Assembly (NCBI GenBank): GCA_016700315.1
Contig: CP065013.1
Span: 257,449 to 321,448, forward strand
Direction: 5' to 3'
Length of the DNA stretch: 64,000 nt
DNA from: Candidatus Saccharimonadota bacterium
GTDB taxonomy: Bacteria; Patescibacteriota; Saccharimonadia; Saccharimonadales; SZUA-47
The first letter of the stretch is position 1. Each line of letters opens with the position of its first letter. The translations under genes and the position numbers were made by a program. Shown here one piece after another: positions 2,176 to 34,988 of this stretch. The notes under the pieces are model-generated. The model worked only from the letters and a program-made list of their open reading frames with translations, did no database searches and was not told the DNA's origin.

Positions 2176-3102
2176 ATGCTTTTTAGTAAACTAAAAACCG
2201 ACTTTCTGGAATATCTCGAGATTGAGCAGGGACGCTCACAAGCCACAATCAAAAACTACGACTTTTACTTGTCTAGGCTGATTGACTTTGAAGGTGATTT
2301 TGAGATAGAGCTGCTGGACGGCGAAATGGTAAGAAAGTGGCGGCTATGGCTAAACCGACTCGGTACTGCCACCAGTGACGAGCTGCAAAAAAACACTCAG
2401 AATTACCATCTGATAGCTCTAAGGGGATTTCTAAAATTCTGCGCCAAGCGTGACATAAAAGCTTTACCACCAGAGAAGATTGAGCTAGCAAAAGCCAAAC
2501 CAAAGCAGGTGACTTTTCTGAACGAAGAAGAACTGGAAAGACTTTTCAACATCCCAAAGCTAGACACCAAATCGGGCCTTCGTGACCGAGCTATCCTCGA
2601 GCTTCTTTACTCTAGCGGCTTGCGTGTTTCAGAGCTCACTGGGCTCAACCGCGACCACATCAACCTCAAGCGGCGCGAGTTTATGGTACGCGGCAAAGGG
2701 CAAAAGGACCGACCAATATTTATCAGCGAATCAGCCTCGTGGTGGCTTCAGAAGTACCTCGATAAGCGCGACGACAATGCACCTGCTCTTTTTATCCAGT
2801 ACAGCGGTAAATCAAGCAGTACAGACAACAGCGGCAGTTACCGCCGCCTCACTCCGCGCAGTGTCCAGCGCATGGTAAGCAAATCTGCCCTGCTCGCTGG
2901 CATAACAAAACACGTAAGTCCTCATACTCTCAGACATAGCTTTGCGACCGACATTCTAATGAACGGCGGCGACTTGCGTTCTGTCCAGGCCCTACTCGGC
3001 CACAGCAACATCTCTACCACCCAGATCTACACTCACGTCACTGATCCACACCTAAAAGCTGTCCACGACAAGTTCCACAAGGATATTAAGAGTAGCACTT
3101 GA
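2176..3102 (+). CDS. Tyrosine site-specific recombinase, XerC/XerD family
   Basis: C-terminal catalytic region HTLRHSFATDILMNGGDLRSVQALLGHSNISTTQIYTHV (R..HxxR..Y) and an N-terminal SAM-like domain. Confidence 0.9.
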   Translation: MLFSKLKTDFLEYLEIEQGRSQATIKNYDFYLSRLIDFEGDFEIELLDGEMVRKWRLWLNRLGTATSDELQKNTQNYHLIALRGFLKFCAKRDIKALPPEKIELAKAKPKQVTFLNEEELERLFNIPKLDTKSGLRDRAILELLYSSGLRVSELTGLNRDHINLKRREFMVRGKGQKDRPIFISESASWWLQKYLDKRDDNAPALFIQYSGKSSSTDNSGSYRRLTPRSVQRMVSKSALLAGITKHVSPHTLRHSFATDILMNGGDLRSVQALLGHSNISTTQIYTHVTDPHLKAVHDKFHKDIKSST

Positions 3103-10720: not shown

Positions 10721-10808
10721 CAGAATTCCCCCCTGATCTCATACTGTTTGGAACAGCCGTATAGAGCCCTGTGCCCTGAGCCCTGAGATATTCTTACTAA
10801 CCCCACCT

Positions 10809-10836
10809 GTCTCTTGTCTCTTGTCTCTTGTCTCTT
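10809..10836. repeat. Perfect heptamer array (GTCTCTT)x4; a second array GAGCCCT GTGCCCT GAGCCCT GAGATAT lies at 10764-10791
   Basis: Read directly in the pilB-pilT spacer. Confidence 0.95.
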
Positions 10837-16205: not shown

Positions 16206-18707
16206 TAAGCTATTCACCGACTCATAATCTCTAAACTGATTCTCTGGATTATTAACTGCCCCAGCTGGACTAGACAGGTAAAATTCAGGTGTTAGACGTA
16301 TCGTCTCACCCGCCGTGGTAATCGAGCCAGCAAAGGTTTCGTTTGGCGTTGACTGGTTCATCGTTCCCGCCAGCCGCCACAAGTTCAGTTTATTAGTGAT
16401 CACCGCCCCGTTTATCTGTAGTCTCTTGTCAAGGCAAGGGTTGGGTGACATCAAGCTGACATCTGTATCTTTGTTGGCGTTACCCCTCGGATCTCCGGCG
16501 TTCAGCGCCTCGGCATAGCAAGTATAAAGCGTACCATTAGCCACCAAAACGCCGTCGAACCGCGCCAGCCTAGGGCTAATATATATATTACCCGTTGCCA
16601 CAATAATTAGCGACGGCATGTTGCCTACGTTTGTCCAACCAGCGTTGTTATAGGCAATTGCCGCGTCGCCGCTTGGTCCAATGTACGCATCACCATCTAC
16701 ATAAATCCTGTACTTACCACTCACTGCGCCACTAGTCGTGAAGTAAGTATCGCCATTATAGCGCTGCACTGTGCTGCTGCCAGCAGGAGCAGTCGACAGC
16801 GAAACCGCGCCGCCAGCAGCACCGCCAGCCGGCATATCTGCCAACCAATCGGCCGTACACATTGGGTAACCAGCACGGCCACCCAGGTCTTCCTCGGCAG
16901 TTATTGTGCTATTAAACGCCGTCGCATAAGAGTTGGCATCTGGGAAGGTGTTGGCTAGCACCCGCCGCTGCGGGAAAGCATTGTCGGCCCCATTCTGCGT
17001 ACTCGTTCTAAAGCCGGTTATGGAGCCTTGCGCCGTCGCAAGTAGCTGCGATCCCGAACCAACCAAAGCAAACGGATCATTAGCTGTCCGATCCAAGTAA
17101 GTTCTTATGCCAGCAAGCTCATTTGTCTGACAAACCCCTCCCTGCTCAAACCCCGACCCCGCAATCAACTCCCCGCTATAAGCCCTAAAATATGGATAAT
17201 TAGACACCGAGAGCTCCAACGCCGGCACAGAACCATTACAATTTACTACTGTTGCTCCATTTCTGACACTTGCCAGCAGCGGATATATGCCCGGAGGCTT
17301 GTTCACCGTTTGCTCCACAATAATATCGTTCGACGATTGCTGAGGCGTCAAGCTATTATTGCCATTCAGCCCATAGGTAGTATTCGTGGTAACTCCCGCA
17401 GCACCAATCGAGATTAGGTCGATGCTCAGTGGCCAATCAGAGGCAGTTATGTTGCTACCGCCAGTTGCTGCCTCGTTCGTTACTTTAGCAATAACTCTCA
17501 CCCTACCACTTGGCTGAACATTTGGCAGTACGCTATTAATGACTTGGTAAGACAATGTACAGCTCGGCGATCCAGTAACCACCGGGCAACTTCTATTGAG
17601 CGACGAGAGTGATTCGTCGAATGGCATCCACACTTGTAACCCGTTTCTGGCCCCTATATCCCAAAATACCCAAGAGTAGCCGTAGCCCGCCCTAACCGTT
17701 ATAGGGTACTGCACAAAATCATCGTTACCACTTGCGACCCCAAAGTCGGACCTACCACTAGGATTTATAGTTCTAACTATTGCTCCACTTGGGTCGTATT
17801 CATATACCAGCATTTTCGGCATACCTCGCGAATTGAGTGTACCAGGCGGGTTCGACCCGACATTGGCATCGGCATCATATACTTTGAGGAATATTGTCGA
17901 ATCGTTCTGAATAGTGCATCCAGGCTTAAACGACAATGAATACTCCAGATCATTATTGGTTGGCAAGTCGGTCTTCAAGGCAAAAGCCCCCAGGCCGGTT
18001 GGACCCAACAGGGCCTTTCGATTATTCTGCCAGTTGTTTTGATTATACTTATCTGGAGCACCGTTGGTAGCGTTTGACATAGGATCCGCATCAGAGCTAA
18101 ATCCTACATATGATTGCCCAGAAAGAGCATGTGCCGTAAGCTTGCAGACAACATCTGTCGTAAGAGGATTAATAATTTGTGCAACTACTTTTGTAGTCTT
18201 ATATACACCGTTAGATAACAAGAAATCACTCGGTTGAAAAGTAACTGTCTGGGTACCGGTACCAATGAATGTCGTATCCCTGACGATACCTACGGCATTA
18301 ACGCTGGTAGTAGCATGAGCACACAACCATACCTTGACTCTTATCTGCTGAGCTACAGTTGGCTGAGTCCCCGAGTAAAGTATGAATGACGCATTTGGAG
18401 TATGTAGCGTCGAGCCGGGCGAGCCGTCACTATTAGCATAATAAGATGAAAGATAAACATAAGAACCATTAACATCGGGCCAGGTCGCAGATGTTGTGCG
18501 CGGCACGTTATTACAGTTGTTCGAGGCATTCTTAGCTAGCCCAGTTCTAGGGAAGTCAACCGCTGGAGTTTTGAAGTTAGCGTTAGCGCTGTTAAAACAG
18601 CTTGGCAGCGCTGCTGCTTTTTCGCTGTTTAGTAGCACTGTACATGTAGCGATTAGCCCCAGCAGCACAGCAAACAGTATTGGCCTAGCAAACCTGAATC
18701 TCATCAT
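16191..18707 (-). CDS. Large secreted protein (838 aa) of unknown function, co-oriented with the pilus locus
   Basis: Signal-peptide-like N-terminus MMRFRFARPILFAVLLGLIATCTVLL. G/S/T/N-rich, with no recognisable catalytic motif. Start overlaps the stop of the TPR-like gene. Confidence 0.75.
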   Translation of the reverse strand: MMRFRFARPILFAVLLGLIATCTVLLNSEKAAALPSCFNSANANFKTPAVDFPRTGLAKNASNNCNNVPRTTSATWPDVNGSYVYLSSYYANSDGSPGSTLHTPNASFILYSGTQPTVAQQIRVKVWLCAHATTSVNAVGIVRDTTFIGTGTQTVTFQPSDFLLSNGVYKTTKVVAQIINPLTTDVVCKLTAHALSGQSYVGFSSDADPMSNATNGAPDKYNQNNWQNNRKALLGPTGLGAFALKTDLPTNNDLEYSLSFKPGCTIQNDSTIFLKVYDADANVGSNPPGTLNSRGMPKMLVYEYDPSGAIVRTINPSGRSDFGVASGNDDFVQYPITVRAGYGYSWVFWDIGARNGLQVWMPFDESLSSLNRSCPVVTGSPSCTLSYQVINSVLPNVQPSGRVRVIAKVTNEAATGGSNITASDWPLSIDLISIGAAGVTTNTTYGLNGNNSLTPQQSSNDIIVEQTVNKPPGIYPLLASVRNGATVVNCNGSVPALELSVSNYPYFRAYSGELIAGSGFEQGGVCQTNELAGIRTYLDRTANDPFALVGSGSQLLATAQGSITGFRTSTQNGADNAFPQRRVLANTFPDANSYATAFNSTITAEEDLGGRAGYPMCTADWLADMPAGGAAGGAVSLSTAPAGSSTVQRYNGDTYFTTSGAVSGKYRIYVDGDAYIGPSGDAAIAYNNAGWTNVGNMPSLIIVATGNIYISPRLARFDGVLVANGTLYTCYAEALNAGDPRGNANKDTDVSLMSPNPCLDKRLQINGAVITNKLNLWRLAGTMNQSTPNETFAGSITTAGETIRLTPEFYLSSPAGAVNNPENQFRDYESVNSLPPSF

Positions 18708-19162
18708 GTTCCCAGTATTCCTGCCTCTCGCTCCAACTTGTCTTGTTCTTCCTTAGTAGGTGGTACCTCTGTCTCATCAAGCAGCGGCGCTAGGTTGTCG
18801 GCCATAGCATTTAGCCTTTCAGACTCCGTGCCAAGCCCTGCACTAGCGTAGTACTTAGCAGCTTCTTCGTAAGATTTTTGAGCGCTTTTTAAGTCGTTAT
18901 CAAATGAGTAACACCGCCCCAATGCTTCGTTAGTTGCAGCCAAATCTTTGGCTGCTGCCCCTTTGTCGGCTTGCTTGAGCTTGGCAAACGATTCACCACT
19001 GCACTTGCCTTCAAACAACTGCTGTTTTAGACCTTGACTCTTGTAGTAGTCAGCCGATCGGTTGCCGCTACTTCGAAACTTTAGGTAAAGCCCCAGACAA
19101 ACAACTGCCGCCAGGCCCACCAAGCCGCCCACCATTAGCTTCTTCCTATTAAGCTTAACCAT
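18704..19162 (-). CDS. Membrane-anchored TPR-like protein
   Basis: N-terminal TM (LMVGGLVGLAAVVCLGLYL) followed by Ala/Tyr-rich helical repeats (ALGRCYSFDNDLKSAQKSYEEAAKYYASAG). Confidence 0.6.
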   Translation of the reverse strand: MVKLNRKKLMVGGLVGLAAVVCLGLYLKFRSSGNRSADYYKSQGLKQQLFEGKCSGESFAKLKQADKGAAAKDLAATNEALGRCYSFDNDLKSAQKSYEEAAKYYASAGLGTESERLNAMADNLAPLLDETEVPPTKEEQDKLEREAGILGT

Positions 19163-19300
19163 TATTATTAATATACATCATAATTGAGCTTATTCACATA
19201 ATTAAGCACTAGCCGACTAGCTATAAAAGCACTAAACGCCCGTGTTTTACCACAAGCGTTTAGTATCTATGTACGAATAGCTTTTTGTTTTTAAGAGTAG

Positions 19301-20173
19301 CTACATCTCTCTAGCATTTATTCTAGAAATCGCCCCAGCCCGCACAGGGTAAAGATTCGCATCGCTGTATGGGTCTACACTGATGTTTGCTTTGAGTCCG
19401 TTTTGGACAGGCGCTGGGTGAGCTTCGTCCCATTTAGCCCTAGCATAGGCATCTAATGCGCCTGCTTGGCTAGAATTTAGTTCATCTTCTATGCCCGTAA
19501 AGCGAAACATCTGGCCGTAGTTGGTGTCTATACCTTCTTTATCAGAAGCAGGTTCAATAAACTTTAGGTCGCAGCGCTTAGCAATCGCTACCGCTTCTGG
19601 GCTGCCATCTACCTTAACCACATCACCTTCTTTGTTTCGGTGGTACATCTTAGTAAACAAACTCTTAGCTAGCTCTGGTTCGCCCTGCTGTCCGGCACAT
19701 AGTTCGGCTACTCTTTCTTCAAAGGTTGGGGCTTGGGTGGTGGTAGTGGTGTTAGCGGAGTTCTTCTTGGTGGATTTAGTTGTGCCGCCAGAGCTATTGC
19801 CATTGTTGCTTCCGCCGCCGTTGCCGCCGTTATTACCACCGCCATTGTTACCACCGCCTTGTGGCTTAGTGGTTGTGGTGCGAGGTTTGGTGGTGGAGGT
19901 GCGAGGGCGGGTGGTGGAGGTGCAGACTAGTATAATACCGCCATACTCATCCGTCGTCTGCACACACCCCTCAACCCGTTTCTCTGGTTGTAGTACTTGT
20001 GGGGCTTCTTGAGCTATTGCTTGAGCAGTCGGCACACCGAGTATTGGCGTTAGCACCATACCGGCTCTCAATAACAAGCCTTTTGGTTTCTTAGATTTGC
20101 TAACTTCAGCCATAGGCATAGCACCCATCTCTGGGGATCGTGATAATTCGTTGCTTCTGTTGCTTGCACTCAT
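19301..20173 (-). CDS. Secreted protein with T/P/R and G/N low-complexity linker, unknown C-terminal domain
   Basis: Hydrophobic N-terminal segment, a TSTTRPRTSTTKPRTTTTKPQGGGNNGGGNNGGNGGGSNNG linker, and a good AAGGAG Shine-Dalgarno sequence upstream of the start. Confidence 0.65.
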   Translation of the reverse strand: MSASNRSNELSRSPEMGAMPMAEVSKSKKPKGLLLRAGMVLTPILGVPTAQAIAQEAPQVLQPEKRVEGCVQTTDEYGGIILVCTSTTRPRTSTTKPRTTTTKPQGGGNNGGGNNGGNGGGSNNGNSSGGTTKSTKKNSANTTTTTQAPTFEERVAELCAGQQGEPELAKSLFTKMYHRNKEGDVVKVDGSPEAVAIAKRCDLKFIEPASDKEGIDTNYGQMFRFTGIEDELNSSQAGALDAYARAKWDEAHPAPVQNGLKANISVDPYSDANLYPVRAGAISRINAREM

Positions 20174-20563
20174 GGCTTTCTGCTCCTTACCTGAGACTTG
20201 GGGGGGTTTCTGCTCAGATGATTAGTTAACTTAACTTTGGTCTATCGGTGCTAGCGGGCATTTTACTGTCCCTTGCTGACTGCTTGTACCGATCTTTTTT
20301 TGGCACGTTTTGAGCGTTCGGGCTCTAAGTTTCACAGTTAGTTTACTTTTTCCAGCAGCCTTGTTTACTTACTAAACAACCAGCTACCGAAATACTGACT
20401 AACCTTAACCTTAAAGCACACCCCAACTATACCACACCCCCACCCCCGTTGTCAATAGCCCGATTCTAGCAATTAGCGGGAACGGTAACCTTTACTTATG
20501 ATCTAATGCGCCCCTCGCCTTCCATTACCTCCCACCCAACACCCCTACAGCCAACCTTCATGT

Positions 20564-20599
20564 ACGACATGTTTGCCACGATCGTGGTTTTTATGTCGT
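20564..20599. repeat. Palindromic hairpin element copy 2 (left arm variant ACGACATGTTTGCCACGA)
   Basis: The right arm is identical to copy 1. The left arm has GTTTG in place of AAAAA, giving a U-U internal loop. Preceded by a C-rich tract. Confidence 0.85.
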
Positions 20600-20785
20600 C
20601 TTTTTATACTCACACCCCTGTAATTCACAAGGTAGACCAGGCTGCTTTCACGACTGTCACTACGACTAAGGCGCAGTCAAAACGCTAACCGTTATGCATT
20701 TATCCACCATTTTGCTTATGTTTTACCCAGACTTATCCATACCCCATCCCCACCCCACCAAACACCACTACACCTCCCTTCACGT

Positions 20786-20803
20786 ACGACATGTTTGCCA
20801 CGA
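20786..20803. repeat. Half-copy of the palindromic element (left arm only), preceded by C4 runs
   Basis: ACGACATGTTTGCCACGA is identical to the left arm of copy 2 and is followed by CCAAGCG instead of the right arm. Confidence 0.75.
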
Positions 20804-20852
20804 CCAAGCGTTTTCTTGTAGGCTTCTTGGCTTTCGTATATTTTTTTGTTCG

Positions 20853-21602
20853 CTATACACGTTTACTACCCTCGACTAAGCCGAGTGAAGACTTTTGACT
20901 CAGGAAGTCAGATGTCTCATTAACCGCACGAGCTAACGCTCTCTCGGGTTCAAGATTATTGATTAAACCACTTACATACTCTGCGAAAAATGTGTCGCCT
21001 GCTCCTATAGTATCTCTTAACCCTTCAACTACATTAGACGGTACGAAATATCTTTGTGAATTGTAAAATAGCTCTACTCCAAATATACCATCTGTGATTA
21101 TTAGCATTTTCTTTTTTTGTTCTTCGACAACAGTTTTTGGTATATAACGCATTTCTTCCCTAGTACCTTTTAAGCAAAATATGCTTTTAGAAACCTCTTC
21201 TGCTGCTAACCAATTTTTTTTCCGGCCAAAAAAATCTCCATCTCTTACATAACCTTGTATATCTAAGAAAACAAGACTGTTATGAAAGTCCACGCTAGAA
21301 AGATCCCACTCATCTGATACTGTCGATACTACCACCCATTTTGCTAGTTTAATGTCTATTGTCTTACGTATCTGTCTAGGTTTTTTTATTACCCGACCTT
21401 TTTCGCCATCTCTAGTGACCAGAATTTCTACCTCCAAACTCTTACAAAGAGCGTCGTCAAACGGCACGAAGTTTTTCGAGAAGACACGTTCTAAGAAATA
21501 TGCTGGACCTCGGTAACTATCTTCCAGTAAATCTCCAGACTCACTAATAACTATGTCCCTACTCCGAGTAGAAATAATATAGACTCTGTCACTCTTATTC
21601 AT
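20853..21602 (-). CDS. PfkB-family carbohydrate/nucleoside kinase-like protein (short)
   Basis: C-terminal IGAGDTFFAEYVSGL is the PfkB signature-2 (GAGD). At 249 aa it is shorter than ribokinases. Confidence 0.65.
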   Translation of the reverse strand: MNKSDRVYIISTRSRDIVISESGDLLEDSYRGPAYFLERVFSKNFVPFDDALCKSLEVEILVTRDGEKGRVIKKPRQIRKTIDIKLAKWVVVSTVSDEWDLSSVDFHNSLVFLDIQGYVRDGDFFGRKKNWLAAEEVSKSIFCLKGTREEMRYIPKTVVEEQKKKMLIITDGIFGVELFYNSQRYFVPSNVVEGLRDTIGAGDTFFAEYVSGLINNLEPERALARAVNETSDFLSQKSSLGLVEGSKRV

Positions 21603-22137
21603 ACTTATTTACATATTCCCGCGCTTTACTAAAAGCTATGCTCACTGCTTGCTCTGGTGACTCTGCTGCTAGTACCATCTGTCTTTGTCTGTTATCCATA
21701 AATTGTCCGGCCAGCTTGTCTGACCATCCACCCATCCCTGAGACCACTACCATAGGTATACCTGCTTGATAGGCAACCGTTAGTTCGTTCAATGTCCCGG
21801 ACCCACCACTGATAGCTATTACTACATCACACGATAAGGCGAGTACAAACTCTCTCCCACCTCCTCTTTCCATACCAGTAGGTATAATTACGTCAGCATC
21901 AGATTGTAATATCTTCTTACCCTTACCATAAGTTATTCCTACCGTCAGACCACCTTTTCTTTTTGCGCCTCGACAAGCGACTGTGGAGAGAGAGTCTGAA
22001 TCTTTCTCCGCACCAAAAACCAGTATTCCGCCTTCCTCAGCGATTAACTCTCCTACTCTTTCTGCAATCAGTTCAACTTCCTTAGTATAATTAAGGTCAG
22101 CCATTGAACCCATGACTCCTATCTGAAGTTTACGCAT
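21595..22137 (-). CDS. TIGR00725 / LOG (SLOG) family Rossmann protein
   Basis: IGVMGS N-terminus and AISGGSGTLNELTVAYQAGIPMVVV (PGGxGTxxE-like motif). Overlaps the PfkB-like gene by 8 nt. Confidence 0.7.
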   Translation of the reverse strand: MRKLQIGVMGSMADLNYTKEVELIAERVGELIAEEGGILVFGAEKDSDSLSTVACRGAKRKGGLTVGITYGKGKKILQSDADVIIPTGMERGGGREFVLALSCDVVIAISGGSGTLNELTVAYQAGIPMVVVSGMGGWSDKLAGQFMDNRQRQMVLAAESPEQAVSIAFSKAREYVNKYE

Positions 22138-22260
22138 AATTATTTACTCCTTTTAGTATAATATTTGCATTAATTAATGGTAGATACTCTACTTTTTTTC
22201 ATAGAGTTTTTGCCTCCCGATTTCTTTGTACTAAACTTTCATTATTCTTTCTCCATACTA

Positions 22261-22287
22261 AAAACACCAGCTCGCGCTGGTGTTTTA
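22261..22287. terminator. Hairpin AAAACACCAGC-TCGC-GCTGGTGTTTT, bidirectional terminator candidate
   Basis: An 11-bp stem flanked by A runs and T runs on both sides, in the 520-bp spacer between the PP2C and LOG-like genes. Confidence 0.5.
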
Positions 22288-22659
22288 TTAAATTTAGTTT
22301 TCTACATCAATACGCGAACTTTGAAACTAGCAACATGGTGATGCAAATGGGACTGATTAAGGGATCTTTTCAAAGCTAGCATACTCGCATGCTAGCTCTT
22401 AGGTACCGATTTGTCAACAACCTGCACCCTTACGAGATCTTTCATAACCCAAGTAAAATAGTTTTTGTATAACCATATCGTATAACTAGCTATTGTGTAG
22501 AAGTTACATACTTTTATCAGTATTCGGCCCTACAAAGGCCAGAGAACATACAACGACAAACACAAGATTCGATAAGAGAGTAGACTCATTAAACGAATCA
22601 ACAGGGAGAAGTCTGACAGCAAAGGTTTCTTGCTTCTACGAATTAGCCACAGTTATTTA

Positions 22660-23394
22660 TTATCCCCCTACCTTAAAAACTATTAAACTTGCGTTATCTT
22701 CCGCACCATTATCGAAAACCAGCTGCATTAATTTTTTTACTATAACTTCAGGTTTTAGGCTACATAATTTAGCTATTTCATCTTTCGAAATTACTGGCGT
22801 TTCGTATTTACACTCAGTAACACCATCTGTCATAAGCAACAGTACGTCTCCACGCTCAAGTTTTATTTGATCAAATTTAGTTGCAGATAATACTGGCATA
22901 CGCGCCCTAAGACCCAAAAATGAGAAAGCTCCGAGCCATGTCTTCTCTACTTGCTGTTCGTGAATTATATGCCCATTTCTAACTAAAAACGCTAAGCTGT
23001 CTCCGTATGAATGTAGAATTAGCCTATCCTGTTTTATTTCAGCTGCCACGTAACTGCTTTCAGATGTCCTATCTTTTTCTTCGTCCATTTCACAATGTCC
23101 AAACTTTTTATAAATCATTGATTGTATTTTTAATGCGAAAGATACGGCTTCTGCCCTATTACTAATAAGCTTGCGGGATGACGCCCACACCCGCATAACC
23201 AAGACTGCCGCTTCTTCGCCCCAATGGCTGTCAGCAACAACAAACTTAAGTGTAGAGCTACCAAACTTAGCAAACCCTATCCTATCTTCATTAACATCTT
23301 TTACCAGCCCTCTTGTTGTGGCCATACAAAAATTGTTAGCATAAAAAGTTTGTATTTTTTGCTTGTTATCCTTGACGGGCAAGACGACTTTCAT
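22660..23394 (-). CDS. PP2C-family Ser/Thr protein phosphatase
   Basis: Motifs VADSHWGEEAA, LLMTDGV and AEDNASLIVFKV match the metal-binding Asp motifs of PP2C/SpoIIE-type phosphatases. Confidence 0.75.
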   Translation of the reverse strand: MKVVLPVKDNKQKIQTFYANNFCMATTRGLVKDVNEDRIGFAKFGSSTLKFVVADSHWGEEAAVLVMRVWASSRKLISNRAEAVSFALKIQSMIYKKFGHCEMDEEKDRTSESSYVAAEIKQDRLILHSYGDSLAFLVRNGHIIHEQQVEKTWLGAFSFLGLRARMPVLSATKFDQIKLERGDVLLLMTDGVTECKYETPVISKDEIAKLCSLKPEVIVKKLMQLVFDNGAEDNASLIVFKVGG

Positions 23395-23543
23395 TTTTTA
23401 GATCTCTGCCGTTTCAATGCTAAGGCCGATTGTTTGTAAGATATTAGAAAAATGGCAGGTTGAAGGCACTTTTCCAAATCAACCGTTGGATAAGGCGCAG
23501 GCCCATCTGAAGAAGGATTTGACTCTAATATGATTGTTTCCAT
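23391..23543 (-). CDS. Candidate 50-aa ORF translationally coupled to the PP2C gene
   Basis: ATG at 23541-23543 is preceded by AGAGGAAAG. Its TGA stop overlaps the PP2C ATG (ATGA). Translated by hand as METIILESNPSSDGPAPYPTVDLEKCLQPAIFLISYKQSALALKRQRSKK. Below the ORF-track size cut-off. Confidence 0.35.
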   Translation of the reverse strand: METIILESNPSSDGPAPYPTVDLEKCLQPAIFLISYKQSALALKRQRSKK

Positions 23544-23775
23544 TGTTTACTTTCCTCTAATTTTATTAAAAATCTCCCCTGAGGGAGACTTCCGTTTTTT
23601 ATTCGTAATAATAATCTAGCGGGCGCCTCCTGAAAGCAAATATGCATAATAATATCCTTCTGAAGGGTTAAGAGTTCTTTTTACCATACCGATCGATTAT
23701 AGTACCAACTTTAAATACCGTCAAACCACCCCTTCCCCCCGCCCTACCAAAAAACCTGACCTCACAAGCAATAGC

Positions 23776-24514
23776 GTCAACATAAAAACCACGACCAAAG
23801 GTTTTTATGTTGACTTATAGGGGTAAGACTACTAACATGCGGGTATTATGGGCAGCGGGAATGCGAGAAAGATTAAGCCGAGCAGGCTCAGACCAAGGAG
23901 CCCTAGCAAGGAGCTTACTTCTAAAATAATTGAGTCCGTCTTGAGAGCTAGCGTTTTAGCTGGTTTTACCGCTTCTGCACTACTGATACCAAACTCTCCT
24001 ATCGCCCTAGAGAAACCAGTTAAATTCTTCCTAGATAAATTGGATCAGAAAGAAAAAGAGCGCCAAATCCGCCGCGTAATTACTGAGATGAAACGGCAAA
24101 AAATCGTCAAAGGAAGCTACGAACATGGTCTTGAGATAACCAATAAAGGACGCGAGCGACTAGCAAAACTAGATTACGACAAACTCGAGATATCTGAACC
24201 ACCTTCTTGGGATAAAAAATGGCGCATAGTACTCTTCGACATTCCTTTTAACAAAGATGAGAAACGTAGAGATTTGTCAGAGAAACTAAAACTAACTGGG
24301 TTTCAGTTACTCCAGCTTAGCGTATGGGTGCATCCGTACCCCTGCCGCGATGAACTAAACAAAATATGTGAGCACTTAGGTGTTGCTAAGTATGTTACCC
24401 TCATAGAAACTGCCCACATTGACCACGAAGAATTACTAAAAAAGCGCTTCAAAAATCTCAAATTACAGTAGTGTGTCAACATAAAAACCTTTGGTCGTGG
24501 TTTTTATGTCGTAC
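23776..24514. mobile_element. Single-gene cassette bounded by 35-bp perfect terminal inverted repeats, each itself a hairpin
   Basis: Left GTCAACATAAAAACC-ACGACCAAA-GGTTTTTATGTTGAC (23776-23814). Right GTCAACATAAAAACC-TTTGGTCGT-GGTTTTTATGTCGTAC (24475-24514). The loops are reverse complements, and 23780-23814 is the exact reverse complement of 24475-24509. Confidence 0.7.
23848..24471 (+). CDS. PaaX-like regulator (winged helix plus Cas2/VapD-fold C-terminal domain)
   Basis: WDKKWRIVLFDIPFNKDEKRRDLSEKLKLTGFQLLQLSVWVHP matches the PaaX C-terminal pattern (W..W.lv.f.ipe..R..R..L...GF..l..svWv.P). A wHTH-like region lies upstream. Confidence 0.65.
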   Translation: MGSGNARKIKPSRLRPRSPSKELTSKIIESVLRASVLAGFTASALLIPNSPIALEKPVKFFLDKLDQKEKERQIRRVITEMKRQKIVKGSYEHGLEITNKGRERLAKLDYDKLEISEPPSWDKKWRIVLFDIPFNKDEKRRDLSEKLKLTGFQLLQLSVWVHPYPCRDELNKICEHLGVAKYVTLIETAHIDHEELLKKRFKNLKLQ

Positions 24515-24588
24515 ATTAGCTGTGTGAGCTAGAAGTACCCAATGGTTCTAGGGATGCTGCTTACGAAATTTATAACTTTGAAGATAGC

Positions 24589-25215
24589 CTACAAAAGTGT
24601 CGACCAGTAGTACCAGAACTTGTACAGAATTAGCCATATTACAGCTGCGTAGGTTACGAAAAGTACCAGTGCATGTTCTCGCCTAACCCAAGCGGCAGCT
24701 CGGGCCAAGCTACCTTTTACGGCTATATGCCCTTCGCTAATGTTATACAGCGTCGTGTAAAAAAACAGCGGGATCATTACCGCCCAGGTTGTCATACACC
24801 ATGGGCACAAAGCGCCAATCACAAAAATACTGTGGTACATCAGGTTGAGAACAAAGACAAGCCCGGCCAGCACGCCGAACTGTAGCGCTACCCAAAACCA
24901 TCGCTGTTTCGGTCGCCCAGTTAGAAGCATCATCACCCCGATGGCTATGAGTCCTGCAAAGGCTGGGATGCCAAAAACTGGATTTGGAATACCAAAAACA
25001 TGCGAGCTAGAAGACTTCATGACCGAACCGCAAGAAATAATCGGGTTAAGATCACACCCCAGCTGAGCGGTCGGGTTTTTAAGTAGATGCACCTCCTCAA
25101 CCATCAGAACTACCGCTGCCAGCAGTGCAACCGCACTAAAAACAATCAGCAAGTAAGGATAAATGCGCTTTAGATCCCAAGCGCTACGGTTCAAAAACTC
25201 ATTGATCCTTTTCAT
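24589..25215 (-). CDS. Vitamin K epoxide reductase (VKOR) family membrane protein
   Basis: Loop Cys pair CDLNPIISC, CPWC redox motif and 4-5 TM helices. Start placed at ATG 25213-25215; the tracked ORF extends to a TTG at 25296. Confidence 0.75.
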   Translation of the reverse strand: MKRINEFLNRSAWDLKRIYPYLLIVFSAVALLAAVVLMVEEVHLLKNPTAQLGCDLNPIISCGSVMKSSSSHVFGIPNPVFGIPAFAGLIAIGVMMLLTGRPKQRWFWVALQFGVLAGLVFVLNLMYHSIFVIGALCPWCMTTWAVMIPLFFYTTLYNISEGHIAVKGSLARAAAWVRREHALVLFVTYAAVIWLILYKFWYYWSTLL

Positions 25216-25311
25216 CGCCTCATTATACCTCACACTTGATACAAACTCTTTATTCGCAGGTGCTGTGACAGCTAAGCCATACAAAAAAGCGCGCAACGTT
25301 AAATTCGCAAA

Positions 25312-25716
25312 TTAGATTTTAGCAACAGGTAGTTCGGGCACTCTGCCAAAATCTGAATCTAGAGAAAGCAATAAACAATCGTACTCGAGTGTCAGAGCCG
25401 CGATCCACATATCGTTGGTATTGATTGGTGTGCCCTGCTGCTTAAGTTTTTTGAATATAGCGGCGAAGAGTTTGGTGGTTTTGTCACTGATCGTAACTGT
25501 ATTAACATTCGGCATGTCTAGAAACTTCTGGAGGAGTGCTTCGTTTTCTTTCGGCCTGTTTCCAAGTGCGAAGCCAGCTCTTAGCTCGCCAACGACAACA
25601 AGCGGCACTAAAACTTGCGAATCTGGCCGAAAATATTCACGCAAGCGGCCATCGCCTCTGTTGAATGCCGAATAAGCACTAGTATCAATCAGCAGTTTCA
25701 CTTTGCTCACTGCCAT
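25312..25716 (-). CDS. vapC: PIN-domain toxin VapC
   Basis: LLIDTSAYSAF N-terminal acidic motif with distal D residues, 134 aa, and a 10-nt overlap with the upstream antitoxin. Confidence 0.85.
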   Translation of the reverse strand: MAVSKVKLLIDTSAYSAFNRGDGRLREYFRPDSQVLVPLVVVGELRAGFALGNRPKENEALLQKFLDMPNVNTVTISDKTTKLFAAIFKKLKQQGTPINTNDMWIAALTLEYDCLLLSLDSDFGRVPELPVAKI

Positions 25717-25958
25717 AACTTTTTATCTATTTTAGACAAATCAGCAATCGCTTCGTCAAATGACCCATCAAGTGTGTTAGCTCCAAAAAGCCAATCGAAC
25801 CCAGTCTCAGCTTGAATCTGCGTAGTTCCGAAAGTTTGCATAGTTAACAAATCTACTACTGTCTGGTTAAAAGATTTTCCAGTTCTTTGAGAGCGCTTTT
25901 TTATAACCATGTCAACCGCTGGTGGTATATTCCTTATAGTGTATTGAATTTTACTCAT
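25707..25958 (-). CDS. vapB: VapB-type antitoxin (RHH/FitA-like)
   Basis: MSKIQYTIRNIPPAVDMVIKKRSQRTGKSFNQTVVDLL is a ribbon-helix-helix type N-terminus. Start moved to ATG 25956-25958. Confidence 0.75.
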   Translation of the reverse strand: MSKIQYTIRNIPPAVDMVIKKRSQRTGKSFNQTVVDLLTMQTFGTTQIQAETGFDWLFGANTLDGSFDEAIADLSKIDKKLWQ

Positions 25959-26026
25959 GTATACATTGTATGCAGTATATACACTTACGTCAATCCGCTG
26001 GATCAATACTGATGACTTACACGGCT

Positions 26027-26082
26027 CTTGATACTTTATCCCTGATACTTGATACTAGTTATTATGAGTTTACAGATTGGGA
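26027..26082 (+). repeat. 56-bp direct repeat, copy A: decayed duplicate of the ychF promoter-proximal region and first 6 codons
   Basis: CTTGATACTTTATCCCTGATACTTGATACTAGTTATTATGAGTTTACAGATTGGGA differs from copy B (28110-28165) at 3 of 56 positions. Confidence 0.92.
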
Positions 26083-26201
26083 CAGATACTGCGCAGCCCA
26101 ATTACCTTTTGTGCTAAGACTAACTATGCTACCGACGGATAGAGGTGATCGTAGCTATTCCAACGAACGTACTGTTAAGACAAATGAAGAGTTACAGACC
26201 T

Positions 26202-28088
26202 CTAGCTCTTAGGCTTACTGCGTAAAGCTTTCGTGATAGTACCGAAATTCTTTGCTAGGTCGTAATCACTCCGCCCAGCAACTATTGCCTCATAAATAGC
26301 GTCATCACCAGCAAGCTTTTTAAGCCTGTTATTGAGCTGTCTCATAATTGTTTTAGGATCTTTGTCATGTACACCATTCTGACTTGCGAAGTGACTAAGC
26401 TCTTGAGCGTCAGCAGGACGCTCTGACGGGTTAAAGAGCGGTAGTGTTTCTGGACGTACTTCACGCTGTCGTGCACGAAATGCACCACTTTGCTCGGAGA
26501 GCTCTATGACTCGTTGCTCACCAACTGCGTCTAGCGCTAAAATCTGTAGTTCGTAATCACTAAAAATTAGATTTTCGGCACTTCTCCAGCCAGGTATAGG
26601 TACTGTCCTTTTACCGTCGTAGTCAGCAATTATTACCTTAACACGATCTTGCTCAAAACCACCGCTTGCTTTGTCTAAAGCAAAAAGTGTAGCTACTTCT
26701 ACAGGATCCAGCTTTCCTCTCAGTTGATAAGCGATACTTAGAATATCCTCTGGCAAATGATAATCTTCAGGCATTTCTGGCAATTGTGCGGCTGCCTTGA
26801 GATATTCAGTTGTAGCGTTTTCACGGACACCTTCACGCCCAGACTTACTGAGCCGGGGATTTACAGAGGTACTTCTGATTAACCTTTGAACGTAGTCGGT
26901 CAGTCCAACAAATGCTTTTGTCTTTACCCTACTCGTTTCGAACAATTGCATAAGCTGTCCGACAGCTCGGACTTCTGTTCGGTCTAAATGTTCAATTGCT
27001 GAACCTGCGTCCTCACCTAGTGCCCACGTTGCATCAATAATGGTAGACACTGACGATCCATCTTTGTCTACAGTTACAAATGTATTCCAAGCGTGTCCAC
27101 TTCCTTCACCGGTGCTCGTACTAAAACCGTCTGCTCGTGAGTCAGCATAACCCGCACCGTCTTTACCTCCGCCGTAAACAGCATAAGTATTATTTAGCAT
27201 ACTTAGTTCGGTTTGTGTTGCCTTGAGAGCTTCAAATACAGCCTTTACGTTTGAGGCTACGTTTCTGCAAACGCCGTTACCCTTCCAATTAGGGTCTTTC
27301 CTGCTAGCTATGCCTTCTCTTAGTAACTCAGAAGTGGTTGACTGGTCAGCTCTTGATAAATCTTTTAAGCCAATGTCCTCGTAGGTGTACCGTGAGACAC
27401 TTTGAACAAACGCAGCACTAAGCTTTACCGCTTGTTCGGGAGTCAAGTGACTTAATGAACGAATCTTTAGACTCTCTACTAACTGTTGACCGCTTTTGTC
27501 GTTTTGGAGGTAGTGAGCAAGGACAGTACGCAACTCCGTTTGCCAGCCTTCTTCCTCTACTGTATTGCGATAGGTGTGGTCGCCATTGCCACAGTCAGTT
27601 AGTGACGCTTCCAAGTAATCAGGCACAGGGTACGTTTCGCGGCTTGGTGCTACTTTAGGATTGTAGTGCTCAAGGGTCGTAAAACTAGCAAATGCTGTGT
27701 CTGTCATCTCAATGTGAGCTAAAGAACGTGTATGAACCGTCTCCAATGTACGCATTCGTTCCAGGCTATCGTGCAACGCTAACTCAACGTCCTTACCAGC
27801 ACCTACTACTTCTTTTTTTGTTCTACCTTCCTGTGAACCTGAGCCAATAATAATTCTGTGCTCACCCTCAGGGGTCCTGCCTATGAACTGTTCATCAGCG
27901 CGATAAAAATGCCCTGCCGATACTACAACACCTGATAAACCAACACGTCCAATAGCAGGTATGGCACCACTTTGTTCGGTTGGTAATTGATCTGGGCTTA
28001 TTAGAGGCTTTTGTTCTAGTACTGCGGTCATAGTTTTTATTTTTGCTTTACTCTCTGTTATCTTATCAAATAACTTGACAAATGTCAA
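26202..28088 (-). CDS. Transglutaminase-like (Cys-His-Asp) domain protein, 628 aa
   Basis: NGVCRNVASNVKAVFEAL (nucleophile Cys), GSGHAWNTFVTV (His) and IIDATW (Asp) occur in the order and spacing of the transglutaminase-core cysteine protease fold. No signal peptide seen. Confidence 0.65.
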   Translation of the reverse strand: MTFVKLFDKITESKAKIKTMTAVLEQKPLISPDQLPTEQSGAIPAIGRVGLSGVVVSAGHFYRADEQFIGRTPEGEHRIIIGSGSQEGRTKKEVVGAGKDVELALHDSLERMRTLETVHTRSLAHIEMTDTAFASFTTLEHYNPKVAPSRETYPVPDYLEASLTDCGNGDHTYRNTVEEEGWQTELRTVLAHYLQNDKSGQQLVESLKIRSLSHLTPEQAVKLSAAFVQSVSRYTYEDIGLKDLSRADQSTTSELLREGIASRKDPNWKGNGVCRNVASNVKAVFEALKATQTELSMLNNTYAVYGGGKDGAGYADSRADGFSTSTGEGSGHAWNTFVTVDKDGSSVSTIIDATWALGEDAGSAIEHLDRTEVRAVGQLMQLFETSRVKTKAFVGLTDYVQRLIRSTSVNPRLSKSGREGVRENATTEYLKAAAQLPEMPEDYHLPEDILSIAYQLRGKLDPVEVATLFALDKASGGFEQDRVKVIIADYDGKRTVPIPGWRSAENLIFSDYELQILALDAVGEQRVIELSEQSGAFRARQREVRPETLPLFNPSERPADAQELSHFASQNGVHDKDPKTIMRQLNNRLKKLAGDDAIYEAIVAGRSDYDLAKNFGTITKALRSKPKS

Positions 28089-28109
28089 TATGCTTATGTA
28101 TTAAACATA

Positions 28110-28165
28110 CTTGATACTTTATCCCTCATACTTGATACTAGTTATTATGAGTTTATCGATTGGGA
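28110..28165 (+). repeat. 56-bp direct repeat, copy B: functional ychF 5' region
   Basis: See copy A. Contains the heptamer array GATACTT TATCCCT CATACTT GATACTA and the ychF ATG at 28147. Confidence 0.92.
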
Positions 28166-34880: not shown

Positions 34881-34910
34881 TCGTCACTCCTTTCTTCTGC
34901 GAAGAAACGA

Positions 34911-34988
34911 GTTAGTAGTTAGTAGTTGGTAGTTGGTAGTTAGTAGCCTCATGAGCTACCATCTACCATCTACCTTCTACCTTCTACC
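34911..34988 (-). promoter_or_regulatory. Long imperfect hairpin in the rpsF leader built from two inverted heptamer arrays
   Basis: GTTAGTAGTTAGTAGTTGGTAGTTGGTAGTTAGTAGC (34911-47), a 7-nt loop, then GCTACCATCTACCATCTACCTTCTACCTTCTACC (34955-88). Hand pairing gives runs of 5-7 bp separated by mismatches roughly once per heptamer unit. Confidence 0.6.

Follow-up and report, generated by a model that had tools for sequence, protein, structure and literature searches.

Matched palindromes bracketing a PaaX-like gene in a Saccharimonadota genome: putative operators of a minimal Patescibacterial repressor family

Two hairpins around a single PaaX-like gene

The window analyzed here is a stretch of 64,000 nucleotides (nt) from a Candidatus Saccharimonadota bacterium (assembly GCA_016700315.1, contig CP065013.1, positions 257,449 to 321,448), and the subject of the analysis is a short gene for a protein of 207 amino acids (aa) resembling the repressor PaaX, which lies alone between two hairpin-forming palindromic sites. 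Comparison with homologous loci indicates that these hairpins are most likely one lineage's version of an arrangement widespread in Patescibacteria, and not Xer recombination sites. The unit consists of the following features:

23776 to 23814, no strand: upstream site (left hairpin), whose gene-distal half GTCAACATAAAAACCACGA is a canonical half-site
23810 to 23838, plus strand: promoter-like site (consensus match only), with a −35 box TTGACT, a 17-nt spacer, a −10 box TAACAT and, 10 nt after it, the ATG (leaderless type)
23848 to 24471, plus strand: gene for the 207-aa PaaX-like protein, the sole open reading frame between the two sites
24475 to 24514, no strand: downstream site (right hairpin), beginning 3 nt past the stop codon

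As an earlier note on this DNA had described, the interval 24475 to 24509 is the exact reverse complement of 23780 to 23814 (35 nt, 100% identity, separation 660 nt), each loop is the reverse complement of the other, the sites are inverted with respect to one another, and no transposase is encoded inside the unit. The 15-bp stem that the note gave to each end exists at the left site, where a perfect stem encloses the 9-nt loop ACGACCAAA (predicted RNA free energy −20.3, z score −6.1), but not at the right site, where the perfect stem has just 11 bp (24479 to 24489 paired with 24499 to 24509) around the loop TTTGGTCGT and the outermost four positions are GTCA/CGTA-type mismatches. The arm pattern of the hairpins occurs twice in the window against an expectation of 0.01, and none of 100 shuffles reached two. 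Both sites lack half of the conserved centre found in the rest of the family (ACGA·CCAAA and TTTGG·TCGT; the dot marks the centre); in the gene-proximal half of the upstream site, CCAAAGGTTTTTATGTTGAC, the TCGT core half is gone and there is a shift of 1 nt. No direct repeat that could represent a target-site duplication abuts the 35-nt arms of the unit, and an Rfam scan of the window returned tRNA only.

The enclosed protein

The assignment of the gene to the winged-helix plus Cas2/VapD-fold (PaaX-type) proteins, also made in the earlier note, is borne out by its profile match, its structural model and its fold matches. The protein matches PF20803 (PaaX_M, the Cas2-like central domain) over residues 119 to 195 with 74.9 bits against a cutoff of 24, besides a weak match to the CggR_N winged helix. 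In the AlphaFold model (mean predicted local distance difference test [pLDDT] value 70.7), the Cas2-like domain exceeds 90 and adopts a ferredoxin-like β-α-β-β-α-β fold at about residues 119 to 200; the winged helix occupies about residues 52 to 111 (pLDDT 60 to 75), and residues 1 to 58 are of low confidence. The top structural match is Escherichia coli PaaX (8a39; probability 1.0, E value 1.8e-5, 186 columns), followed by Rv0674 and then by Cas2 and VapD proteins. The protein stops about 10 residues past the Cas2-like domain and has no PaaX_C match, that is, no C-terminal effector domain; it scores far under the cutoff of the PaaX equivalog model TIGR02277 (NCBIfam; 33.9 against 264.55 bits) and below that of the Cas2 model TIGR01573 (21.2 against 24.5 bits), and PADLOC Cas2 models match weakly. 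The family profile found no match among the sequences of solved structures.

The window contains no CRISPR-like array, and there are no paa genes near the PaaX-like gene, whose neighbours are PP2C, SLOG, PfkB, VKOR and PIN/RHH genes; the gene contexts of its homologues are varied. Against a 96%-identical relative (GCA_029781765.1, locus L126) the ratio of nonsynonymous to synonymous substitution rates is 0.11, indicating purifying selection and hence a functional gene. The family comprises 5756 cluster representatives at 50% identity (E ≤ 1e-3), almost all of 180 to 200 aa, and the Cas2 β1 motif WR.V.FDIP is invariant across it, including the aspartate of FDIP.

Matched palindromes bracket the gene across the family

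In order to quantify bracketing, we compared the best 80 of at least 591 loci from species-representative genomes, nearly all of them Patescibacteria, with start codons of the homologues set heuristically. The score of a locus was the best ungapped segment common to the 200 nt upstream and the 200 nt downstream of the gene; 300 pairs of mismatched loci served as the null (mean 8.7, 99th percentile 14), and 396 other genes in the same loci served as controls. The PaaX-like genes reached a mean score of 19.4, and 55 of the 80 (68.8%) exceeded 14, whereas the controls had a mean of 8.7 and exceeded 14 in 1.0% of cases (Fisher p = 2e-47, Mann-Whitney p = 7e-39); 12 more PaaX-like loci pass only the 95th percentile of the null, which brings the total to 67 of 80. 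Bracketing is thus specific to this family within the loci compared: the gene and its flanking repeats form one discrete module, as the earlier note had proposed, and PaaX-like genes that lack such flanks are not the rule in relatives.

The bracketing palindromes are not copies of one conserved sequence; homologues at 54%, 43% and 31% identity also lie between two matching palindromes, one ahead of the start and one behind the stop, with a sequence of their own in each case. Units occur in one to three copies per genome, and extra solo copies within 6 kb are few (about 6 to 7 in 540 kb of flanks); the 64-kb window has 2 solo copies.

Anatomy of the sites and overlap with the promoter

Across the family, dyad symmetry extends over 18 positions to either side and is at background level further out, which defines a site of 36 bp. 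Positions 1 to 4 form the core, with the consensus G-C-G/T-A·T-C/A-G-C, and 96% of half-sites have C at position 3; positions 5 to 8 are looser, and positions 9 to 18 are strongly symmetric yet lineage-specific. The outer arms of these 36-bp palindromes are about 16 to 22 bp apart. In the upstream copy, the gene-proximal arm usually holds a −10-like TAAAAT or TACAAT 6 to 8 nt before the ATG, as in a leaderless-type promoter; of 50 upstream copies, 35 have a TAnnnT at most 16 nt to the right of their dyad. The right arm of the upstream site of the window contains the −35 box TTGACT, and the layout of the relative is alike; in this subfamily the site covers the −35 box, whereas in most other lineages it covers the −10 box. 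Start codons directly after −10-like boxes or 6 to 8 nt beyond them (TATTATG..., TAAAAT-N6-ATG) are seen at 28120 to 28150, at 23830 to 23850 and at many loci, a pattern that suggests that leaderless transcripts may be common for these genes.

Of the two palindromes, the downstream one is as a rule the better, and at 14 of 52 loci it overlaps the stop codon. The dyads are a median of 646 bp apart, and this spacing shows no helical phasing (Rayleigh p > 0.3). A T-run follows the downstream palindrome in just 9 of 52 loci, with G-rich tracts in its place, so that these copies are not classic terminators; of 53 downstream neighbours 30 are convergent, compared with a background in which about 30% of neighbours lie on the opposite strand, so that the downstream copy is not generally an operator of the next gene.

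These observations bear on an account in which the palindromes would act at the RNA level only, as bidirectional terminators or stabilizing hairpins that no protein reads. Folded as RNA, the hairpins have predicted energies that indicate stability (−20 to −23 kcal/mol, z scores −4.4 to −7.2), the right site lies in a gap between convergent genes, which is a terminator position, seven T residues directly follow a solo palindrome at 2077 to 2112, and the arm sequence AAAAACC...GGTTTTT is common in ordinary metagenome terminators. We nevertheless regard this account as very improbable. The left and solo sites are located between divergent genes, over promoter elements, and thus not in the 3′ end of any transcript; the right hairpin is followed by CGTACATTAGC and lacks the U-tract of an intrinsic terminator, so that the explanation of the hairpins simply as terminators on both sides, which the earlier note had held open, does not fit this locus. 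In addition to the scarcity of T-runs across the family, the centre is conserved in sequence, and selection for a hairpin alone would neither keep the two copies alike nor tie their arms to the winged helix of the enclosed protein (see below).

Arm sequences were also searched in metagenomes with the pattern ACATAAAAACC-N6-12-GGTTTTTATGT, yielding more than 120 contigs, nearly all of them with ordinary terminator-like stem-loops in which the "loop" continues the stem. A perfect palindrome holds only about 11 nt of information, and the arms alone are therefore not diagnostic. The sole match with a ACGATCGT centre (L115) lies between same-strand genes, looks like a chance terminator and was set aside; the scan of the genome collection gave zero matches with the exact family centre.

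The sites diverge with the protein that they enclose

Paralogous units of one genome have different arms and often different cores. Recognizable sites are present at both units in 6 of the 8 genomes with two paralogous units, and they differ from each other; palindromes that are specific to a paralogue within one genome argue against a single host recombinase or a shared host factor as their reader. The co-divergence of sites and protein was analyzed by partial Mantel tests on 51 loci (2000 permutations), each domain being controlled for the other. The outer arms follow the winged helix (r = 0.23, p = 0.001) and not the Cas2-like domain (r = −0.01, p = 0.60), whereas the inner core follows the Cas2-like domain (r = 0.23, p = 0.0005) and not the winged helix (r = −0.18, p = 0.998). 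In groups of syntenic loci that were inherited vertically, changes in the half-sites of one copy go along with changes in those of the other. Since the arms co-diverge with the encoded winged helix, the gene appears to be the partner of the sites rather than a passenger between them. The relative orientation of the two copies is direct at 16 loci, inverted at 9 and near-symmetric at 27; such freedom is expected of a symmetric dimer and speaks against a recombination system, which would be orientation-sensitive.

The earlier note had likened the unit to pdif modules, which depend on Xer and are found on Acinetobacter plasmids; the PaaX-like gene would then be a passenger in a cassette moved or inverted by the XerC-like recombinase encoded at 2176 to 3102. 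The resemblance includes a short gene segment between two palindromic sites, which are inverted in the window as in pdif modules, and a Xer recombinase in the genome; the sites of the window can also be read as half-site chimeras, the products of a reciprocal crossover at CCACGA. The note's further statement that another copy of the element lies beside a Xer gene is right as to the XerC/D/A-like gene; the palindrome that lies 64 nt upstream of this gene is perfect and related, but not the same hairpin. The geometry is, however, the opposite of dif logic: pdif sites are 28 to 31 bp long, with conserved arms of about 11 bp and a centre of 6 to 8 bp (11-6-11), whereas the sites here are 18+18 with a conserved centre and variable arms, and in the window the central lengths are unequal between the partners (8 and 9 nt). 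Unlike pdif sites, they differ between modules of one genome, match the enclosed protein and are free in relative orientation.

Nor was structural polymorphism of the module seen in a limited sample of close relatives. Five metagenome contigs with an identical gene (L001 to L005) and the relative L126 have the gene in the same position and orientation, and neither empty, inverted nor relocated copies of the cassette, which the earlier note had suggested looking for, were seen among these six; the left hairpin is absent in the relative. In another strain the solo palindrome at 2077 stays with ndk, whereas the sequence towards xerC is a different one from 27 nt outwards. No second family site was found behind xerC, and xerC was rejected as the gene of a module of its own. 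The Xer model is therefore largely refuted, and we consider it extremely improbable for this unit; proximity to a Xer gene does not by itself make a palindrome a dif-like site.

G-rich tracts outside the units

Over 50 to 60 nt beyond the two palindromes, the plus strand is C-rich on the upstream side and G-rich on the downstream side, the G-rich strand thus pointing outward at either end. In the outer windows of the units (intergenic only, n = 81) the outward G-excess has a mean of 0.149 and is above 0.2 in 28%, against 0.000 ± 0.10 and 2% in control intergenic windows (n = 472; p ≈ 1e-19). The tracts, seen at loci including L128, L130, L134, L158, L163 and L173, are G/T-rich and C-poor on the outward strand; strict G-quadruplex motifs are rare in them (3 of 158), and "G4" was dropped as a general description. 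Instances in the window lie at 2040 to 2075, at about 20505 to 20560, at 20735 to 20785 and outside the upstream site of the unit:

23722 to 23750, minus strand: tract that is C-rich on the plus strand and outward G-rich, GGTAGGGCGGGGGGAAGGGGTGG

By analogy with Rho-loading sites, which are C-rich and G-poor, transcripts entering a unit from either side could present such sequences, and the tracts could act as insulators.

A putative pair of autoregulatory operators

We favour, at a probability of roughly 60%, the reading that the hairpins are putative cognate operators of an autoregulated, minimal PaaX-type repressor that is encoded between them, one located at its promoter and one behind the gene. 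A dimer would bind the palindrome of about 36 bp, each winged helix reading a lineage-specific outer arm (positions 9 to 18 from the dyad) and the pair of Cas2 folds, as the dimerization domain, lying over the conserved centre with the consensus GCGA·TCGC. Bound to the upstream copy over its own promoter, the protein would shut off its own synthesis. The downstream copy, presumably of the same specificity, would most likely be an auxiliary operator, which either forms a loop with the promoter copy or, when occupied, shields the unit from neighbouring transcription as a roadblock or insulator, and the few solo copies, such as the one between ndk and xerC, may be further targets. Binding and repression are proposed from sequence comparison, and the role of the downstream copy is the most tentative of these assignments.

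The comparison with PaaX itself is close in several respects. The E. coli PaaX operator is TGATTC-N27-GAATCA, two inverted repeats over about 39 bp; PaaX also keeps its own promoter repressed, through occlusion of RNA polymerase (PMC9493321). The Patescibacterial family shares with PaaX the N-terminal winged helix followed by a Cas2-like domain, and the palindrome at its promoter, a putative operator with arms about 16 to 22 bp apart instead of N27, has a similar geometry. The family differs in that its members have only 180 to 207 aa and no C-terminal effector domain, in that they are numbered in thousands of divergent forms, nearly all in Patescibacteria, with no paa genes beside the gene of the window, and in that the site has a conserved central core; the operator-like copy behind the stop and the mirrored G-rich tracts are additions, neither of which is reported for PaaX.

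Auxiliary operators and DNA looping are familiar from LacI (O1-O2), GalR and DeoR. The unit resembles these systems in having two sites of apparently the same specificity several hundred base pairs apart (median 646 bp), one of them at the promoter, the other being here the better palindrome and having no promoter role; it differs in that a loop would enclose exactly the repressor's own gene and in that no helical phasing is seen. We know of no standard bacterial layout that combines a second operator right behind the stop codon of a regulator with mirrored G-rich tracts. PaaX-type repressors and long-spaced inverted-repeat operators are already known; the bracketing arrangement in Patescibacteria is apparently undescribed, since a literature search found nothing on a minimal Patescibacterial PaaX-like family, on an operator pair bracketing its own gene or on mirrored G-rich tracts.

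Several points weigh against the operator reading. Its evidence is wholly comparative, the co-divergence correlations are modest, and phylogeny was handled by permutation only. A repressor has no obvious need for a second operator behind its own stop, where the next gene is so often convergent, and a plain operator model does not predict the mirrored outward tracts. In the lineage of the window, where half of the conserved centre is missing from either site, binding may be weak or of another kind. There are also hints of recombinogenic or mobile behaviour: units that are 70 to 78% identical at the nucleotide level, some of them paralogues in one genome, share no flank similarity, the homology of displaced units begins and ends at the palindromes, and several strain breakpoints lie at or within about 30 nt of sites. 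In our view, these observations speak for duplication or transfer of the unit as one piece and for recombinogenic palindromes, but not for a dedicated recombination system.

Patescibacteria (the candidate phyla radiation) are uncultivated, have tiny genomes with few recognizable regulators, and their gene control is almost unexplored. If the operator reading is true, thousands of family members carry their own binding site twice beside the gene, which would allow regulons to be predicted from sequence alone and would provide a natural library of orthogonal repressor/operator pairs. The bracketed layout itself points to a new mode of gene insulation or to a selfish element.

The unit as a possible selfish module

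A self-bracketed selfish or mobile module, whose protein would act on its terminal palindromes with the Cas2 fold as nuclease or strand-transfer partner, so that the unit of about 650 to 700 bp is excised, copied or moved, is unlikely but deserves consideration. The overlap with the promoter would then be autoregulation in the manner of a transposase, and palindromes on their own would be its footprints or its targets. The displaced units bounded by palindromes and the strain breakpoints, here 27 to 31 nt from sites, fit such behaviour, as does the compact, insertion-sequence-like layout of site, open reading frame and site, in which the downstream site can overlap the stop. In the window, a 2.96-kb indel lies exactly at a site centre and the sites are half-site chimeras joined at CCACGA·; the invariant FDIP aspartate also counts in favour of this reading, and the mirrored outer tracts lengthen the terminal symmetry. 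On the other hand, copy number is low, near-identical copies are absent (orthologues aside, the best unit identity between loci is 78.6%), and many units are stably syntenic over deep divergence. The unit of the window has no visible target-site duplication, no empty or inverted form was found in the five contigs or the relative, and the ends are direct or inverted alike. Phage, viral-contig and plasmid collections yielded no relatives of the family except distant true PaaX, and in PaaX the Cas2-fold domains are dimerization modules. Unlikely, too, is a form of the idea in which the whole unit, from G-rich tract through palindrome, gene and palindrome to G-rich tract, would be an autonomous selfish module: beyond repression, its protein would cut, pair or prime at the ends of the unit and so bring about excision, copying or local replication. 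If true, this would be an element built on the Cas2 fold, with no counterpart among described transposons, and it might throw light on the origin of Cas2.

Known selfish and replicative systems offer partial parallels. In REPtrons, RAYT genes (homologues of HUH/Y1 transposases) are flanked by repetitive extragenic palindromic (REP) sequences that occur in tens to hundreds of copies; the unit likewise places the gene for a DNA-binding protein between two copies of its presumed cognate palindrome, with additional solo copies, but the protein has a winged helix and a Cas2 fold and extra palindromes are rare. As in insertion sequences, the open reading frame fills the space between protein-specific terminal sites, the upstream one overlapping the promoter; unlike in insertion sequences, each end is itself a palindrome and the ends may be direct or inverted, and unlike insertion sequences or miniature inverted-repeat transposable elements, the unit shows no target duplication, multicopy expansion or transposase fold and is present once in the window. 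Archaeal origin recognition boxes consist of a dyad and a G-string and are found inverted beside orc1/cdc6. They are a lead only: dyads with a G-rich element are likewise mirrored around the gene of a presumed winged-helix reader, but the units here are bacterial, occur several times per genome, bracket a gene and not an unwinding element, and encode no AAA+ domain.

Two contigs of one metagenome sample (3300045332) show breakpoints near sites: positions 1 to 48 of L003 diverge 31 nt outside the left hairpin (left of window position 23745), and positions 1 to 130 of L213 diverge 27 nt outside the solo palindrome (beyond about 2139). They represent either strain rearrangements beside sites or assembly chimeras.

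Solo sites and the origin of the window form

Operator-like palindromes also occur apart from units. Those in the window, together with a remnant, a strain-specific block and a solo copy conserved elsewhere, are as follows:

2077 to 2112, no strand: solo canonical site, presumably with the specificity of the unit, a perfect 18+18 palindrome ACGACATAAAAACCACGA·TCGTGGTTTTTATGTCGT with the centre ACGA·TCGT
20564 to 20599, no strand: second solo site (S1), with a canonical core and an imperfect left arm (ACGACATGTTTGCCACGA·TCGTGGTTTTTATGTCGT), kept in the relative
20788 to 20822, no strand: remnant of the ancestral upstream site, with the left half ACGACATGTTTGCCACGA followed by CCAAG...
20826 to 23788, no strand: strain-specific 2.96-kb block with PfkB-like, SLOG and PP2C genes, both ends being at the decamer CCACGACCAA shared by the sites
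About 9346 in L140, 9708 in L141 and 9499 in L145: conserved solo copy downstream of a NYN-like gene

The first lies between the divergent ndk and xerC genes, 64 nt upstream of the xerC-like gene, with the C-rich tract at 2040 to 2075 on its ndk side. The S1 site, beside which the window has the C-rich tract at about 20505 to 20560, lies 233 bp upstream of the gene-proximal site in the relative. The copy kept in three orthologous Saccharimonadales loci is 64 to 100 nt upstream of a gene with a metallo-β-lactamase fold, which is a candidate regulon member.

The PaaX-like gene of the relative is in the same place, next to VKOR. Its upstream site, ACGACATGTTTGCC ACGA·CCAAA GGTTTTTATGTTGAC, forms no hairpin, its downstream site is the canonical palindrome GTCAACATAAAAACCACGA·TCGTGGTTTTTATGTCGTAC, and the inverted match between the two is only 15 nt; both the left hairpin and the perfect match over 35 nt are therefore peculiar to the lineage of the window. 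In the window, the remnant at 20788 to 20822 is split from the PaaX-like gene by the 2.96-kb block, which is absent in the relative and supplies the new left arm of the upstream hairpin; the distal arm of that site has no counterpart in L126. The sole difference between the right loop and the loop of L126 is TTTGG in place of ACGA, and through this replacement the right site is exactly complementary to the left one. Perfect identity of the two copies over 30 to 38 nt is found elsewhere too (inverted at L150 and L151, direct at L165, L168 and L206). The simplest account of the 35-nt inverted identity and the 9-nt loops would be a recent rearrangement at the sites followed by copy correction between them, perhaps by gene conversion or template switching, and the exact inverted identity is then probably a lineage-specific outcome rather than a designed recombination substrate. 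Identity to L126 is about 100% over the left flank (18500 to 20560) and 89 to 95% over the PaaX-like/VKOR block (23795 to 25246); the sharp step beside the site at 20564 marks a recombination breakpoint at the sites and suggests that an allelic replacement may have ended there.

Other interpretations of this region were dropped. The stretch 20788 to 20850 is not a mini-cassette remnant, since L001 and L002 show the 20822/20823 junction to be an unrelated breakpoint; insertion of a cassette at the centre of an empty palindrome was given up as the main model in view of the non-hairpin left site of L126 and of bracketing as the rule elsewhere; and the other indels between the window and L126 (25247 to 28132, 30483 to 30486) are not site-bounded, as their ends have no family sites.

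To the left of window position 20823, L001 (1 to 4856) and L002 (1 to 3437), which represent other strains in those metagenomes, contain an IS30-like gene (HTH_38 and rve), a DDE_Tnp_1 fragment and a gene for a 79-aa protein; this region replaces the intergenic region 20173 to 20822 of the window with its two palindrome copies. The interval 25247 to 28132 is a second 2.9-kb insertion of the window relative to GCA_029781765.1 and contains a PIN/RHH toxin-antitoxin pair and a gene for a 628-aa protein (26202 to 28088, no family match), which is flanked by a direct repeat of 56 bp (26027 to 26082 and 28110 to 28165, about 95% identity); both repeat copies have a promoter-like CTTGATAC...TATTATGAG running into a start codon. 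In L126, 13763 to 14635 contains an EamA gene that is absent from the window and has no bounds of the palindrome family. A gene on the minus strand (19301 to 20173), kept in the relative, encodes a 290-aa protein with TT(K/R)PRT repeats and a glycine/asparagine-rich stretch and contains a tandem repeat of 15 and 21 nt at 19824 to 19923. Finally, perfect heptamer tandem repeats are located at 114 to 157, 10808 to 10836, 34910 to 34988 and 58546 to 58577, with the units CTCTAAC (six copies), TGTCTCT (four copies), and AGTTAGT, CTACCAT and TTCCTCG (five copies each).

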